A DNA stretch of 5,671 nt. It comes from a virus. Its lineage: Duplodnaviria > Heunggongvirae > Uroviricota > Caudoviricetes. Positions 1 through 5,671 of the stretch are shown piece by piece. Numbering within the stretch: position 1 is the stretch's first letter; every line of letters begins with the position of its first letter. The stretch lies in IMG/VR virus record IMGVR_UViG_2703718781_000017, one strand, 5' to 3'. The translations under genes and the position numbers were made by a program. The notes beneath the pieces were generated by a model. That model had not been told where the DNA came from and did not search any database. It saw only the letters and a list, made by a program, of their open reading frames with translations.

Positions 1-407
1 TCTGGCAGCCTGAGTTCACAGATAAAACACTCTCCAGGAAACCCGGTGCGGTTCCTCCGGTAGGCGGTGGCCGTGCTGTCACACGCCCCTTTCAGGCGTT
101 CACGTTCAAAATTCAGCACCACGGCCAGATTGTCATATTCCTGTACCAGCTCCCGGCGTGCCACGCGCTCAATGTGGCGCTGTTTCAGCTCGTCGCTCAG
201 GACACCACCGGCTGCACGAAAGGCCGTGCGCCAGTCGTCAGCATCGTTTCCGTCGGCCTGCGTCAGCGCATTTTTTTCCTGCTCTGCCCGTTCAATGGCC
301 GTGACGGTCTCATCCATCAGGCGGGCGTTCTCAAGATGAGCGACTCTGGCCTTTTCCAGTTGTGCCAGTGCGGGTTGCAGATATTCAGGGATGGTGTTGT
401 CAGACAT
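1..407 (-). CDS. Hypothetical protein, N-terminal 135 codons only (gene continues past the left window edge); possibly the first gene of a divergent late-type operon
   Basis: Reverse-strand frame is open with no stop from the window edge to the ATG at complement 407..405; product begins MSDNTIPEYLQPALAQLEKARVAHLENARLMDETVTAIERAEQEKNALTQ. GAGGAG Shine-Dalgarno (complement of 415..420) lies 7 nt upstream of the ATG. Absent from the ORF track because it is truncated. Charged, helix-prone composition. Family not recognised. Confidence 0.6.
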   Translation of the reverse strand, partial: MSDNTIPEYLQPALAQLEKARVAHLENARLMDETVTAIERAEQEKNALTQADGNDADDWRTAFRAAGGVLSDELKQRHIERVARRELVQEYDNLAVVLNFERERLKGACDSTATAYRRNRTGFPGECFICELRLP

Positions 408-479
408 TTTCCGGCTCCTCGTCACTTCAGGTTAAGAAAATTGTGACGTACACCGGACAACAACACGACGCATTGCAGA

Positions 480-497
480 TGTGCCAGCCCTGACACA
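480..497 (-). promoter_or_regulatory. TGT-N12-ACA dyad, candidate activator site of a P2/P4 late-type promoter driving the reverse-strand gene
   Basis: TGT at 480..482 and ACA at 495..497 with a 12-nt spacer. The dyad centre (about 488) is ~55 bp upstream of a predicted reverse-strand start near 433, with a weak -10-like CACAAT (complement of 440..445) and the ATG at 407. This geometry matches Ogr/Delta-activated late promoters (established knowledge). A second TGT-N12-ACA lies at 442..459. The motif is short and about one chance occurrence is expected in a window this size. Confidence 0.3.
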
Positions 498-576
498 GGA
501 GACTCATCCTCAGACCGGCAAGCCAGGAAAAGGTCGCAGGAAAAACCGGCTTACTGTTTGTTTTTTTATATTTTAC

Positions 577-680
577 TGTTCACCTCTGTTCACCTTAATA
601 AAAAAGATAAGTAATACAGTAAGTTAAATGGTGAACAATCGCAGTAATGACTGTTCACCGTCTGTTCACCACTGTTCACC
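577..680. repeat. ori-like iteron cluster: six copies of the octamer TGTTCACC (five direct, one inverted)
   Basis: Exact TGTTCACC at 577..584, 587..594, 652..659, 663..670 and 673..680; inverted copy GGTGAACA at 630..637. The cluster sits in an AT-rich intergenic region with a T-run at 553..568. The same octamer recurs downstream of the primase gene (5391..5671). In P4 the alpha protein binds this type I iteron at ori and crr (established knowledge). Confidence 0.75.
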
Positions 681-682
681 CG

Positions 683-771
683 TTGATGGGCTTTTTGTGC
701 TGTTTATTACTTTTTATTTTTATTAATTCACTGAAATAAATAAGAAAAAACAATTTGTATTTCACTATAAT
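683..771 (+). promoter_or_regulatory. AT-rich candidate promoter region for the AlpA gene
   Basis: Strongly AT-rich stretch immediately right of the iterons, with a perfect TATAAT at 766..771. No convincing -35 hexamer at 17 bp spacing, so exact promoter placement is uncertain. Confidence 0.3.
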
Positions 772-958
772 TTTTTCCAGCTCCTTCCAGAGCGTTTTAA
801 AGCTATCTGGCGCTGATGTACAAAAAACGCACAGCCATTGTAAGGCTGCCGGAACAAATCCCCCCTGTTGCGTCTGCCAAAAATATTCACAAAATAAAGC
901 GCTACCCGAAGCCGGACGGACTTATCCGGTGCTGTATGGACATTAACGAGGTAGCCCG

Positions 959-1225
959 ATGCAAGCTGTTTTTTCTTCCCCGTCTCCCGCCCCTGTGACG
1001 CCACTGATGCCGCTGCCGGACATCACGCAGGAGCGTTTTTTACGTCTGCCGGAAGTGATGCACCTGTGCGGCCTGTCACGCTCGACCATCTACGAACTCA
1101 TCCGTAAGGGGGAATTTCCGCCGCAGGTGAGTCTTGGCGGTAAAAATGTGGCCTGGCTGCACTCTGAAGTCACCGCATGGATGGCCGGCCGCATTGCCGG
1201 ACGCAAACGGGGGTATGACGCATGA
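959..1225 (+). CDS. alpA: AlpA-family phage/island transcriptional regulator (helix-turn-helix, excisionase-like fold)
   Basis: Translation contains the hallmark AlpA motif [52 protein letters not shown] at 947..950 sits 8 nt upstream of the ATG at 959. An alternative start at the in-frame ATG 1007 would give the more typical ~72 aa length but lacks a Shine-Dalgarno. Stop TGA at 1223..1225. Confidence 0.85.
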
Positions 1226-1260
1226 TGATGCCCGCTCTGCAAAAACTCCCTTTTTCTGGC

Positions 1261-1290
1261 TTGCCTTTTTCCGGCATTTGCGGATATAGT
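1261..1290 (+). promoter_or_regulatory. Candidate sigma70 promoter in the leader downstream of alpA
   Basis: TTGCCT at 1261..1266, an 18-bp spacer, then TATAGT at 1285..1290. Predicted start near 1297. Sequence-only prediction. Confidence 0.3.
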
Positions 1291-1353
1291 CTTTCCGTTG
1301 CCGCAAAATCGGCAGCCGGGCGTGAGAACCCGTGTAGCTCGAAGGCGACATAT

Positions 1354-1375
1354 GACGCGCCATGCGTCTTTTTTT
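1354..1375 (+). terminator. Short hairpin plus T7 tract: candidate weak intrinsic terminator or attenuator
   Basis: GACGC (1354..1358) pairs with GCGTC (1364..1368) around a 5-nt loop, followed by seven T (1369..1375). The stem is only 5 bp. An outer pairing GCGACA (1345..1350) with TGTCGC (1377..1382) encloses the hairpin and T tract, suggesting alternative folds. It could terminate alpA transcription or a ~80 nt transcript from the 1261..1290 promoter. Confidence 0.35.
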
Positions 1376-1507
1376 GTGTCGCAATCAACGCCACAGAGCG
1401 CCAGATTATGGTGTGGCGTGTGGTTTGCCGTGCAGGTATGATCCTGTTCGCAATCGCATGTTATGCCACTGAGTCAATGGTAGCTCAGGCGGGGCAGCCT
1501 CCGGGCT

Positions 1508-1535
1508 GGCCGGTATTCTTCGAGGCCGGTATTCT
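1508..1535 (+). repeat. Perfect 12-bp tandem direct repeat GGCCGGTATTCT (period 16 bp)
   Basis: GGCCGGTATTCT at 1508..1519 and again at 1524..1535. It lies in the leader upstream of the first cassette gene and is followed by a 9-bp-stem hairpin (GCTATCGCC 1549..1557 pairing with GGCGATAGC 1576..1584) just before the ribosome-binding site of the 1615 gene. Confidence 0.8.
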
Positions 1536-1614
1536 CACCCCCGTCTGGGCTATCGCCATCGAGCGTGAGAACTCCGGCGATAGCAGTTATTTGCTACTCG
1601 AAGGAGGCTGCCTT

Positions 1615-1812
1615 ATGGCTACAACCCTTACCCCCTCACACCCTGAATTTGTCTTTGTGTTTGCGGCTGTCCGTCGCGCAGACCGTCATCCCCGTATCTG
1701 TATGCTTCGCACCGTCGCCGGTGATGAACGCAGTGCCCGCCGTTCCCTTGTCCGTGACTATGTGCTCTCCCTTGCTGCCCGTCTGCCGGTGGTGGAGGTG
1801 TCCCGTGCGTAA
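1615..1812 (+). CDS. Small hypothetical protein (65 aa), first gene of the alpA-to-primase cassette
   Basis: Strong AAGGAGG Shine-Dalgarno at 1601..1607 sits 7 nt before the ATG at 1615; stop TAA at 1810..1812. Product is [65 protein letters not shown]. Small proteins in this position of P4-like islands are often annotated as Icd-like, but I cannot confirm homology from sequence alone. The ORF-track version 1222..1812 would cross the promoter and terminator-like leader features and is unlikely to be translated in full. Confidence 0.6.
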
Positions 1813-2092
1813 TAAAAAAGCCCCTCAGACCGTCTCAGCGCGTCATGACGCCCGTGAACACCTCAGCATTGAGGCTTACCATAAGCTCAACCGCGCCAGC
1901 GCCGTATCCCAGTTTGTTGGGGGTGATTTGATTCACCGTGAACTCTCCGGCCTGCATCAGCTCTACATTCCGCATATTTTCAGCTACCTGAATGAAGATA
2001 TTGATTTTGTGCTGAATGAACTGAAAGCCAAAGGCCTGTGCCGCGATTTTCTCGCCCAGCAGAAAGACCGGGGAGACAGGACGCATGTTTGA
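1805..2092 (+). CDS. Hypothetical protein (~95 aa), probable GTG start, translationally coupled to the upstream gene
   Basis: GGAGG at 1794..1798 sits 6 nt upstream of GTG at 1805, which overlaps the TAA stop of the previous gene. The frame stays open to TGA at 2090..2092 and contains no in-frame ATG after 1805. The only ATG-initiated version (1565) would overlap the 1615 gene out of frame for 240 nt. Product is [95 protein letters not shown]. Confidence 0.5.
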
Positions 2093-2540
2093 TTTTCCCC
2101 AGCCCGGTGAGATTTACCGTTCTGCCGGTTTTCCCGATGTGGCCGTGGTCGGCATTCTGGAAGACGGTATTCCGTGGGAAATGCCGTACCGCTGCCCGGA
2201 AATTGTCTGGAACCCGTACCGCCGTAAATTCAGTATCCTTGTGCGTATCCTCGCTGACGGACGCACCACAGACATCCCGCTGGGGCGTTTTCTGCGGGAA
2301 TTTACCTGTGACCGTCCTGACCTGTTTAAACGCAGCCCCGTAAACCGGCATGCGGTACTGAAAGAAATGGCCGGAGACCCGGAATTACAGAAATGGCGGG
2401 AAAAATATCTGGATATTTACCCGCAGGACACTGTTCCGGTCAGCCGGGCAGCACCGGTGGCGCGGGAATGGCGGGAAATTCCCCGCACGGAGCCTGACCC
2501 GGAAACCACCCCGGATAACAGTTACCGCAATTATCTGTAA
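2085..2540 (+). CDS. Hypothetical protein (151 aa)
   Basis: ATG at 2085 overlaps the stop of the previous gene by 8 nt (ATGTTTGA), with GGAGA at 2071..2075 upstream. Clean 151-codon frame ending TAA at 2538..2540. Product begins [63 protein letters not shown]. No domain recognised by eye. Confidence 0.65.
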   Translation: MFDFPQPGEIYRSAGFPDVAVVGILEDGIPWEMPYRCPEIVWNPYRRKFSILVRILADGRTTDIPLGRFLREFTCDRPDLFKRSPVNRHAVLKEMAGDPELQKWREKYLDIYPQDTVPVSRAAPVAREWREIPRTEPDPETTPDNSYRNYL

Positions 2541-2568
2541 TTAAAAAACGACCCCCGAAAAATTAAAT

Positions 2569-2608
2569 GTGCGTATTCGCGCAGGGATACGCACGTCTTC
2601 AGGAGACG
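2569..2608 (+). promoter_or_regulatory. Tandem hairpins or inverted repeats in the intergenic gap between the 151-aa and 63-aa genes
   Basis: GTGCGTAT (2569..2576) pairs with ATACGCAC (2587..2594) around a 10-nt loop; immediately after, CGTCT (2594..2598) pairs with AGACG (2604..2608) around a 5-nt loop. No U tract follows, so this is not a canonical terminator. Candidate operator, RNA processing site or internal regulatory element. Confidence 0.35.
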
Positions 2609-2675
2609 CAGATATACCTTATCAGTTAATGCAACCGGCACGGAATGCAGTCATCTGTCACAGGGAGAAAAGCAA

Positions 2676-2867
2676 ATGAAAACACCCTTACCGCCCGTCT
2701 TACGCGCTGCCCTTTACCGTCGCGCTGTCGCCTGTGCCTGGCTGACCGTGTGCGAACGTCAGCACCGCTACCCGCATCTCACCCTTGAGTCACTGGAGGC
2801 GGCCATCGCCGCTGAGCTGGAAGGCTTTTATCTGCGCCAGCACGGTGAGGAAAAGGGCGTCAGATAG
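2676..2867 (+). CDS. Small hypothetical protein (63 aa)
   Basis: GGGAG at 2663..2667 sits 8 nt upstream of the ATG at 2676; stop TAG at 2865..2867. Product is [63 protein letters not shown]. Family not recognised. Confidence 0.55.
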
Positions 2868-2890
2868 CCTGTGCCCTGCTGGAAGATTTA

Positions 2891-2995
2891 ATGGAATCCG
2901 GCCCCCTGAAGGCCGCGCCGTCGCTGTCCTTTCTCGGGCTGGTTGTGATGGATGAACTCTGTGCCCGTCACATAAAAGCGCCGGTACTGCACTGA
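2891..2995 (+). CDS. Possible 34-codon upstream ORF whose stop overlaps the primase Shine-Dalgarno (speculative)
   Basis: ATG at 2891 to TGA at 2993..2995 ([34 protein letters not shown]). The stop abuts the AAGGAG at 2995..3000 that serves the primase ATG at 3010. No good ribosome-binding site of its own. Could be a leader peptide, a coupling ORF or non-coding. Confidence 0.2.
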
Positions 2996-3009
2996 AGGAG
3001 AACAACACC

Positions 3010-5343
3010 ATGAAAATGAACGTAACCGCCACCGTCAGCCATGCGCTCGGCCACTGGCCGCGTATTCTCCCGGCGCTGGGGATTCAGGTGCTGAAAAACC
3101 GTCATCAGCCCTGTCCGGTCTGTGGCGGGAGTGACCGCTTCCGTTTTGATGACAGGGAGGGGCGCGGCACCTGGTACTGCAATCAGTGTGGTGCCGGTGA
3201 CGGCCTGAAACTGGTTGAAAAGGTGTTTGGTGTTTCCCCGTCCGACGCGGCCGCAAAGGTGGCTGCCGTGACCGGCAGCCTGCCCACGGCTGACCCGGCA
3301 GTGACGGCCGCCGCCGGCGCTGAAACAGACGCTGCCCGGAAGAACGCCGCCGCACTGGCACAAACCCTGATGGCAAAAACCCGTCCCGGAACCGGTAACG
3401 CCTACCTGACCCGCAAGGGCTTTCCCGGCCGGGAATGCCGGATGCTGACCGGCACACACAGAGCCGGTGGCGTGAGCTGGCGCGCCGGTGACCTTGTGGT
3501 GCCACTGTATGACGACAGCGGCGAACTGGTTAACCTTCAGTTAATCAGTGCTGACGGCCGTAAGCGCACCCTGAAAGGCGGACAGGTCAGGGGCACCTGT
3601 CACACCCTTGAAGGACAGAATCAGGCCGGAAAACGTCTGTGGATAGCGGAGGGATACGCGACCGCACTTACCGTACATCACCTGACCGGTGAAACGGTGA
3701 TGGTGGCGCTTTCTTCCGTGAACCTCCTTTCTCTGGCCAGCCTTGCCCGGCAGAAGCATCCGGCCTGTCAGATTGTCCTTGCCGCAGACCGTGACCTCAG
3801 CGGTGACGGCCAGAAAAAAGCCGCCGCAGCCGCAGATGCGTGTGAGGGCGTTGTTGCCCTGCCGCCGGTCTTCGGTGACTGGAATGATGCCTTCACGCAG
3901 TACGGCGGGGAGGCCACCCGTAAGGCCATTTATGATGCCATCCGGCCACCGGCTGAAAGCCCGTTCGATACCATGAGCGAAGCGGAGTTTTCCGCCATGA
4001 GTACCAGCGAAAAGGCCATGCGTATCTATGAGCATTACGGCGAGGCGCTCGCGGTCGATGCCAACGGCCAGCTTCTGTCCCGCTATGAAAATGGTGTCTG
4101 GAAGGTGCTGCCGCCACAGGACTTTGCCCGGGATGTGGCCGGGCTGTTTCAGCGTCTGCGCGCGCCGTTCTCCTCCGGGAAGGTGGCCTCCGTGGTGGAC
4201 ACCCTGAAGCTGATTATTCCGCAGCAGGAAGCCCCCTCCCGCCGCCTGATTGGCTTTCGTAACGGCGTGCTCGACACGCAGAACGGCACGTTCCACCCGC
4301 ACAGTCCGTCACACTGGATGCGCACCCTGTGCGATGTGGATTTCACCCCGCCGGTGGACGGTGAAACGCTGGAGACCCACGCCCCCGCGTTCTGGCGCTG
4401 GCTTGACCGTGCCGCCGGTGGCCGTGCGGAAAAACGCGACGTGATTCTGGCCGCACTGTTTATGGTGCTGGCAAACCGCTACGACTGGCAGCTCTTTCTG
4501 GAGGTGACCGGTCCCGGCGGCAGCGGCAAAAGTATCATGGCCGAAATAGCCACCCTGCTGGCCGGGGAGGATAACGCCACGTCGGCCACCATCGAGACGC
4601 TGGAATCCCCGCGTGAACGTGCCGCGTTAACTGGCTTCTCACTGATACGCCTGCCGGACCAGGAAAAATGGAGCGGCGACGGAGCCGGACTCAAGGCCAT
4701 CACCGGCGGCGATGCGGTGTCCGTTGACCCGAAATACCGGGATGCGTACTCCACGCATATCCCGGCGGTGATTCTGGCCGTGAACAATAACCCGATGCGC
4801 TTCACCGACCGCAGCGGCGGCGTGTCACGCCGGCGGGTGATTATTCACTTCCCGGAACAGATAGCCCCGCAGGAGCGCGACCCGCAGCTTAAGGACAAAA
4901 TCACCCGCGAGCTGGCGGTCATCGTGCGTCACCTGATGCAGAAGTTCAGCGACCCGATGCTCGCCCGGTCACTGCTTCAGTCCCAGCAGAACTCAGACGA
5001 GGCACTGAACATCAAACGGGATGCCGACCCGACGTTTGATTTTATCGGCTATCTGGAAACCCTGCCGCAGACCAGCGGCATGTATATGGGGAACGCCAGT
5101 ATCATCCCGCGTAATTACCGTAAATACCTCTATCACGCCTATCTGGCCTACATGGAGGCAAACGGCTACCGGAATGTACTCAGTCTGAAAATGTTCGGGC
5201 TGGGGCTGCCGGTGATGCTGAAGGAATACGGACTGAATTACGAGAAGCGCCATACCAAACAGGGGATACAGACCAACCTGACGCTGAAAGAGGAAAGCTA
5301 CGGCGACTGGCTGCCAAAATGTGACGACCCTGCAACAGCCTGA
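3010..5343 (+). CDS. P4 alpha-type multifunctional replication protein: primase (zinc ribbon plus Toprim), helicase with P-loop NTPase, and C-terminal origin-binding region
   Basis: 777-codon ORF with AAGGAG at 2995..3000, 9 nt before the ATG. Zinc-ribbon signature CPVCGG-x18-CNQCG (aa 35..60, nt about 3112..3189). Toprim motifs WIAEGYATAL (Glu 214, nt about 3649) and AADRDLSGDG (Asp 260 and 262, nt about 3787..3795). Walker A GPGGSGKS at aa 501..508 (nt 4510..4533). The C-terminal ~150 aa are unassigned and by analogy with P4 alpha should bind the TGTTCACC iterons. Stop TGA at 5341..5343. Confidence 0.95.
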   Translation: MKMNVTATVSHALGHWPRILPALGIQVLKNRHQPCPVCGGSDRFRFDDREGRGTWYCNQCGAGDGLKLVEKVFGVSPSDAAAKVAAVTGSLPTADPAVTAAAGAETDAARKNAAALAQTLMAKTRPGTGNAYLTRKGFPGRECRMLTGTHRAGGVSWRAGDLVVPLYDDSGELVNLQLISADGRKRTLKGGQVRGTCHTLEGQNQAGKRLWIAEGYATALTVHHLTGETVMVALSSVNLLSLASLARQKHPACQIVLAADRDLSGDGQKKAAAAADACEGVVALPPVFGDWNDAFTQYGGEATRKAIYDAIRPPAESPFDTMSEAEFSAMSTSEKAMRIYEHYGEALAVDANGQLLSRYENGVWKVLPPQDFARDVAGLFQRLRAPFSSGKVASVVDTLKLIIPQQEAPSRRLIGFRNGVLDTQNGTFHPHSPSHWMRTLCDVDFTPPVDGETLETHAPAFWRWLDRAAGGRAEKRDVILAALFMVLANRYDWQLFLEVTGPGGSGKSIMAEIATLLAGEDNATSATIETLESPRERAALTGFSLIRLPDQEKWSGDGAGLKAITGGDAVSVDPKYRDAYSTHIPAVILAVNNNPMRFTDRSGGVSRRRVIIHFPEQIAPQERDPQLKDKITRELAVIVRHLMQKFSDPMLARSLLQSQQNSDEALNIKRDADPTFDFIGYLETLPQTSGMYMGNASIIPRNYRKYLYHAYLAYMEANGYRNVLSLKMFGLGLPVMLKEYGLNYEKRHTKQGIQTNLTLKEESYGDWLPKCDDPATA

Positions 5344-5350
5344 CCCACCT

Positions 5351-5375
5351 GACCGGCATCTGCCGGTCTTTTTTT
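5351..5375 (+). terminator. Rho-independent terminator of the primase operon
   Basis: GACCGGCA (5351..5358) pairs with TGCCGGTC (5361..5368), a GC-rich hairpin, followed by seven T (5369..5375). It starts 8 nt after the primase stop codon. Confidence 0.8.
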
Positions 5376-5390
5376 ATCCCTGAATTCCCC

Positions 5391-5671
5391 GAAGGTGAAC
5401 AATCCACTGTTCACCCTTCACCGTATATTCACCCGTTATCACACTGAAATTAAAAGAGAAAAACGAAAGGTGAACAGTGTGAACAATCAAATCAAAAAAA
5501 ACTTTTTTCTTCCGGTGTGATTTCAGCACGGGAAATTAATCCCCTGCACAAGTCACACCGGCAGAATGCCGGAGGTGAAGAATCGAATGTTCACCCTTCA
5601 CCCATTATTCACCACCTATCACTATGAAATAAAATGAGAAAACAGAAAGGTGAACAGTGTGAACAGTTCTT
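5391..5671. repeat. crr-like cis replication region: two ~100 bp imperfect direct repeats spaced 180 bp apart, each carrying TGTTCACC and GGTGAACA iterons
   Basis: Unit 1 (5391..5488) and unit 2 (5571..5668) align at roughly 80 percent identity with a 180-bp offset. Exact octamers: GGTGAACA at 5394..5401, 5469..5476 and 5649..5656; TGTTCACC at 5408..5415 and 5588..5595. Degenerate copies include CTTCACC, ATTCACC, GGTGAAGA and GTGTGAACA. A GC hairpin precedes each unit (5351..5368 and 5558..5572). The window ends inside or just after unit 2. Confidence 0.75.

Follow-up and report, generated by a model that had tools for sequence, protein, structure and literature searches.

Satellite phage P4 has a cis replication region (crr) that was sequenced and functionally defined in 1987. 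The primase-helicase alpha requires this region in cis, in whichever orientation, to initiate at ori. Alpha binds the type-1 repeats of both ori and crr, and looping between the two sites has been seen by electron microscopy; a further protein, Cnr, increases the affinity of alpha for the ori and crr sites and limits copy number. Reports from 1987, 1993, 1995, and 2002 are said to be the joint sources for binding, looping, and the cis requirement: the first of these reportedly defined crr by its positive requirement in cis for replication, and the 1993 work reportedly found the repeats to be bound by alpha and the DNA between ori and crr to be looped. A more distant parallel may be drawn with iteron plasmids (P1 incC/incA and F incB/incC), which likewise carry a distant second cluster of initiator sites that is paired or looped with the origin by protein; however, their clusters act negatively by handcuffing, whereas crr is positively required in cis, and their initiator is a Rep protein, whereas the crr system uses a primase-helicase fusion. 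The domain architecture of alpha has been described elsewhere (PMC2777425), and a recent P4 engineering preprint calls crr "essential for … replication of DNA" (bioRxiv 10.64898/2026.03.30.715334).

The DNA analyzed in this study, a stretch of 5,671 nucleotides (here called the window), matched the P4 genome (X51522, positions 4308-9934, minus strand) at 97.3% identity over positions 56-5671 and a P4-like prophage of Escherichia coli O145:H28 RM13514 (locus L003) at 99.93% identity. From left to right, it carries the 5' part of sid on the minus strand, the P4 ori, ORF88 (AlpA-like), the immunity region with the CI/C4 RNA, epsilon, ORF151, cnr, alpha, and then crr (Table 1). The host element is a decaying P4-like prophage of E. 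coli and, unlike P4, is defective. Its sid gene is broken by an IS, and therefore the satellite would be unable to redirect capsid size; its cnr gene, which occupies a place homologous to that of P4 ORF106, is frameshifted by a 1-nt deletion in an A-run near position 2851 relative to L003. The deletion shortens the product, and the DUF5375 match spans profile positions 1-62 of 106; this could be a genuine frameshift, or else an error made in sequencing the homopolymer. In an element degraded to this extent, the crr site may never be used in the present host. The P4 immunity RNAs were all found by Rfam above the gathering score, inside an annotated 196-aa "Icd-like/Ash" ORF. Rfam matches in the window were confined to this immunity region (1284-1560), which ruled out a known RNA family in crr.

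Table 1. Features of the window, in order of position
Feature	Position(s)	Strand	Remarks
IS629-like (IS3 family) element end	1-55		Copies at thousands of E. coli places
sid, 5' part	57-407	-	Cut by IS after codon 117/244
P4 ori core	577-680	.	Six exact type-1 octamers; X51522 annotates six "ori type 1 repeat" in "origin of DNA replication"
c4 a1b1 target	1284-1336		Rfam
isrK	1297-1374		Rfam
C4/CI antisense RNA	1473-1560		Rfam
cnr (ORF106, DUF5375)	2676-2995	+	Copy-number regulator acting on alpha; frameshifted to 63 aa
alpha	3010-5343	+	777 aa, intact; zinc ribbon, Toprim primase, D5_N/SF3 helicase, C-terminal winged-helix origin-binding domain
talpha, rho-independent terminator of alpha operon	5351-5375	+	GACCGGCATCTGCCGGTC + T7; X51522 annotates "talpha"
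crr unit 1, 120-bp direct repeat	5389-5508	+	0/120 differences from P4; maps onto X51522 features
Unit 1 type-1 octamers	5394-5401, 5408-5415, 5426-5433, 5469-5476, 5478-5485	-, +, +, -, -	
CTTCACC	5415-5421		Unit 1; invariant, sixth iteron-like copy, unannotated in P4
A8-C-T6 tract	5495-5508		End of unit 1
Inter-unit spacer, 60 bp	5509-5568	.	13/60 differences from P4
crr unit 2	5569-5671 (full, 5569-5688)	+	103/120 nt in window; 2/120 differences from P4
Unit 2 type-1 octamers	5574-5581, 5588-5595, 5606-5613, 5649-5656, 5658-5665	-, +, +, -, -	First octamer is the GGTGAAGA variant

A repeat search returned one direct-repeat family in the window, in which positions 5389-5485 and 5569-5665 (97 nt, 84% identical) are spaced 180 nt apart. 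Scanning of the diagonal at offset 180 gave 81/97 matches; in 40 Markov-1 sequences simulated as a control, the mean was 47.7 (standard deviation, 1.0) and the maximum was 50. The two direct repeats 180 bp apart that had been described in the initial annotation of this stretch are therefore real. Their size and similarity had been put at about 100 bp and about 80%, which was close enough; the true length is 120 nt, and the complete units are 81% identical to one another. The proposed start at 5391 was 2 nt late. The end of the window does truncate the repeats, as had been suspected, and the 17 nt that unit 2 loses there were taken from the E. coli O145:H28 locus L003, which is 100% identical in this part.

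Judging from its alignment with P4, this repeat pair is the crr of satellite phage P4, an element that is already known and that is annotated in the P4 reference records. At the homologous stretch, X05623 twice carries the label "direct repeat 1 cis replication region (crr)," and X51522 carries the features "crr 120bp direct repeat," "ori type 1 repeat," and "cis required region for replication"; as annotated in P4, crr has ten type-1 octamers and is built of two 120-bp repeats on either side of a 60-bp spacer. A blastn alignment to X05623 had 94.9% identity over 372 nt (E = 4e-165). The comparison with P4 crr that had been recommended as a check gave a gap-free match in which unit 1 is 100% and unit 2 is 98% identical, and the term "crr-like" used at the outset was apt, since this stretch and the annotated crr are orthologs. 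The window locus also shares with P4 crr (X05623 and X51522/NC_001609) the position after talpha, the 120+60+120 plan, the ten annotated octamers, and an identical alpha DNA-binding domain.

The repeats had been placed downstream of the primase terminator, and this is where they lie: the alpha stop is at 5343, unit 1 starts at 5389, and talpha falls between them. The talpha hairpin (5351-5368) with its T7 run was the sole terminator-like site in 5250-5671. It folds at -14.1 kcal/mol (z, -5.4), and its stem is kept across genera, with 20/25 columns invariant. It coincides with the feature annotated in P4 as "talpha put. rho-independent terminator," in agreement with the proposal that the first hairpin and its T tract end the operon. 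The gap between the terminator and unit 1 has 4/45 differences from P4. It had also been proposed that a GC hairpin precedes each unit. Both hairpins exist, but the second (CCGGCAGAATGCCGG, 5558-5572), which has no T tract, sits in a 14-nt stretch that is restricted to the E. coli/P4 lineage, and it was rejected as a component of the unit. A promoter search inside crr gave one weak consensus match (5608-5635), compared with 0.4 expected.

The TGTTCACC/GGTGAACA octamer occurs in 11 exact copies in the window, compared with 0.27 expected, and none of 200 shuffles reached this number; with one mismatch allowed, there were 20 copies, compared with 5.1 expected. The exact copies are confined to two clusters, one of six in ori (577-680) and one in crr (5394-5656), where five exact TGTTCACC octamers are accompanied by five with one mismatch. 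Each unit has five to six type-1 iteron copies. An inverted pair comes first and is followed by two or three copies in direct orientation; beyond an A-rich stretch, two further copies stand in tandem on the opposite strand, and an A8/T6 tract closes the unit. The tandem block that had been pointed out previously reads GGTGAACA-G-TGTGAACA in both units (5469-5485 and 5649-5665). Furthermore, the impression that the octamers had been conserved while their flanks drifted was confirmed by a direct comparison of the two units, which differ at 1/40 octamer positions versus 22/80 other positions (Fisher p = 5e-4).

For comparison beyond E. coli, the sample comprised 80 loci with alpha relatives that were 57-100% identical, one genome per species, unselected for the repeat. 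Where alpha was at least 81% identical (approximately 45 loci), nearly all loci had one iteron cluster (TGTTCAC) at ori, approximately 1.65-1.75 kb upstream of alpha (approximately 2.5 kb in some loci), and one downstream of alpha, which begins 60-80 nt after the alpha stop. Where alpha was less than 80% identical, the ori cluster was often kept and the downstream crr-type cluster was mostly undetectable, with L081 and L061 as exceptions; therefore, either the requirement does not extend to all elements or the site has been relocated or altered in these.

Two-unit crr regions were aligned from 16 elements with alpha identities of 83-100%, drawn from Escherichia, Enterobacter, Citrobacter, Klebsiella, Raoultella, Atlantibacter, and others. 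In the annotated octamers, the majority-base fraction was 0.97, which exceeded the 0.85 of the other unit positions (p = 5e-6); the latter in turn exceeded the 0.51 of the spacer (p = 5e-15), and the fraction fell to 0.41 past unit 2. The CTTCACC motif and the closing A-run/T-run of each unit were invariant. The octamers are the most conserved columns, a pattern that points to purifying selection focused on them and bears out the initial suggestion of selection on protein-binding sites. The GGTGAAGA variant was kept as the first octamer of unit 2 in 16/16 elements; therefore, the duplication is older than these lineages, and selection has kept both paralogues, which agrees with the earlier view that the duplication is not recent.

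Many relatives have a single-unit crr, and the pair as such is therefore dispensable. In L005, in which alpha is 99% identical, one hybrid unit at +34 to +118 after alpha joins the head of unit 1 to the tail of unit 2, the product of a clean 180-bp deletion through recombination between the units; in L007 and L013, a decayed unit 2 is still present. The flavor of the iteron (…CACC versus …CACT; TGTTCACC or TGTTCACT) co-varies between ori and crr, with a Spearman coefficient of 0.81-0.84 (n = 23, shared ancestry uncorrected), as would be expected if one protein reads both sites. We also observed one lineage (L014, L040, L046, L028, L053, and others) in which TGTTCACT replaces TGTTCACC in ori and crr.

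The alpha protein of the window has a Pfam profile of zinc ribbon, Toprim, D5_N/SF3 helicase, and Pox_D5-type C-terminal domain, and its residues 671-770 are 100% identical to PDB entry 1KA8 ("putative P4-specific DNA primase"), the crystallized P4 origin-binding domain. Based on the identical sites and the identical binding domain, we infer that alpha binding and ori-crr looping occur in the window element as well. It is postulated that the C-terminal winged-helix domain of alpha would bind the iterons of crr and the same iterons in ori, which lies 4.7 kb upstream, and that alpha at crr would contact alpha at ori, with the intervening DNA looped out. Without this contact in cis, alpha would fail to open ori; opening would lead to theta replication in both directions, either once the element has excised or while it persists as a plasmid. 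Cnr would modulate the contacts between alpha and DNA, and copy number would thereby be limited. We are highly confident that this locus is the crr of a P4-type satellite prophage and that it is bound by alpha, looped to ori, and needed in cis; none of the sequence data contradict this explanation. The two sites resemble each other in having the same TGTTCACC iteron for the same alpha domain and in the co-variation of its flavor. They differ in that the six iterons of P4 ori are arranged differently and are accompanied by type-2 repeats and by an AT-rich region in which replication begins, whereas crr carries no start-site annotation. In the window element, crr marks a replication module that is cis-complete, with ori, alpha, and crr intact, in a prophage without sid and probably without cnr.

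It can be envisioned instead that crr is mainly a negative iteron bank that controls copy number by titrating alpha or by handcuffing ori with the help of Cnr, and not an activator of initiation. The layout resembles that of iteron plasmids, with a second iteron cluster outside the origin, and cnr lies within the same operon; in addition, there are at least 10 alpha sites in crr versus six in ori, and natural one-unit variants, including the 180-bp deletion in L005, would make the number of sites tunable. However, the P4 records and, reportedly, the literature since 1987 define crr by a positive requirement in cis, and deletion of crr has been reported for P4 to abolish replication, not to raise the copy number. 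A mainly negative role is consequently improbable in our view, but activating and negative roles of crr are compatible with each other.

The sequence past the window was available from L003, in which the remaining 17 nt of unit 2 come first, followed by an AT-rich stretch with ATGTATAAGGATGTGTATAA-type repeats; repeats of this type likewise follow crr in other elements. Approximately 143 nt of att-arm sequence come after unit 2, and the prophage ends approximately 160 nt past the window: other P4-like copies are homologous up to about extended coordinate 5831, and the match to argO begins approximately 360 bp further on. The initial annotation had suggested that a further unit, or an integrase or packaging gene, might lie just beyond 5671; there is no third unit in L003, nor do packaging genes follow, and the prophage carries its integrase at the opposite end. 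A search of the 18.8-kb L003 locus found no tRNA gene as an integration target near the prophage end. The window element thus differs from P4, which uses leuX, in adjoining argO with no tRNA gene nearby. In L003, positions 1-19 and 9773-10370 show a P4-like prophage integrated next to argO. The approximately 360 bp that separate argO from the end of the element carry a hypothetical-ORF annotation and are present at full length in only 20 genomes.

Homology to P4, like that among P4-like elements, stops exactly at the T-tract that ends unit 2 (equivalent to window position 5688; L003 position 9789). Past this point the sequence is unrelated to that of P4, and the window element has a different att/int module. 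Within E. coli, at least four unrelated downstream att/int-side modules follow an unchanged unit 2 (loci L085-L094). The post-alpha sequence is 328 nt long in the window and 329 and 349 nt long in the short contigs L004 and L006, respectively, and all three end within approximately 20 nt of the unit-2 junction. The end of the window is probably an assembly break at a mosaic junction, and the position of crr at such a boundary would explain where the contig ends.

Since no conserved block lies between crr and the att region, the repeats might be taken for integrase or excisionase arm sites of attR, or for packaging signals, at the prophage end. However, P4 annotates separate "attP arm sequence repeat" features at least 120 bp past crr, and P4 cos is located elsewhere. 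The octamer is the iteron of ori, and its flavor changes together with that of ori; the unrelated att modules that come after an unchanged crr mean that there is no co-variation of crr with the integration module. This reading is very unlikely.

Matches to crr were found in 1094 of 5426 complete E. coli genomes (it was absent from 4332), all of them chromosomal and none on plasmids, and a query that combined the alpha C terminus with crr matched 1081 E. coli genomes. Where it is present, crr occurs once per P4-like element. Ten copies were sampled evenly along the identity ranking of the E. coli matches, and all ten lie approximately 170 nt after a CDS annotated as "primase-helicase zinc-binding domain-containing protein." Many dispersed copies with no gene link, as in REP- or ERIC-type families, are not what was found; crr is linked to the primase gene and is no generic repeat. 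The notion of a generic intergenic (REP/ERIC-like) or chance repeat unrelated to the primase, which the initial annotation had named as the finding that would undo it, is refuted by the diagonal matches far above the simulated maximum, by the set of matching genomes, which is the same size as that for alpha and has no copies on plasmids, by the ten of ten sampled copies directly after the primase-helicase gene, and by the place after alpha kept in other genera, and we found no evidence in its support.

The spacer is the sole fast-evolving part of crr, with 13/60 differences from P4 versus 0 to 2/120 in the units. In the window, an inverted repeat (5507-5533/5540-5566) forms an almost perfect quasi-palindrome with 27-nt arms, centered on ATTAAT, which is much stronger than the palindrome of P4: with a folding energy of -33.7 kcal/mol, the window allele reaches a z of about -6 to -7, compared with about -1.6 to -1.8 (close to random) for the P4 allele. 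Within E. coli alleles, z ranges from -1.6 to -7.3, and the window allele (at least 99% identity) is present in 42/982 E. coli genomes. The spacers of 14 elements from other genera are unrelated in sequence and gave no folding signal (z, -1.2 to +0.7), and a conserved RNA or DNA hairpin as a general feature of the spacer was rejected on these values. The E. coli spacer alleles resemble mosaics of two arm types, including a 4-nt inversion (GTGC/GCAC).

Besides its role in replication, crr might be a fixed anchor of mosaic evolution in P4-like satellites, an idea that we put forward tentatively and consider rather doubtful. The units would remain constant while their neighbors are swapped, with the att/int module switching at the last T of unit 2, and the spacer palindrome would be either a scar left by such exchanges or the active site at which they occur, with template switching and homologous recombination between units as candidate processes. 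A minor "primase-att" defense hotspot of P4 has been reported in a paper that makes no mention of crr (PMC13586616), and the position of cargo between alpha and crr corresponds to this hotspot. If crr does act as an anchor, the hotspot would be a crr-flanked cassette site.

The identification of crr in this window adds little in itself, and its practical value is one of annotation. Of possible interest for satellite evolution and defense hotspots are the iteron-focused selection, the old duplication with its one-unit variants, the co-variation of ori and crr flavors, and crr as a mosaic boundary and cargo flank. In other genera (including L011, L034, L037, and L030), cargo genes of 1-2 kb lie between alpha and crr. 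Five loci (L031, L033, L035, L056, and L029; approximately +150 to +2100 after alpha) have cargo that is bracketed by crr units, and the motifs at the cargo junctions are conserved in these bracketed loci, with ATCAGACCGCT on the left and CCTGTACCTATAGCCTGCGGA on the right. When ten crr-adjacent cargo proteins of other genera were analyzed with PADLOC, there was one strong match, to an AriA/OLD/GajA-like ATPase in L030; the cargo of L033 gave a weak match to PD-T7-1.
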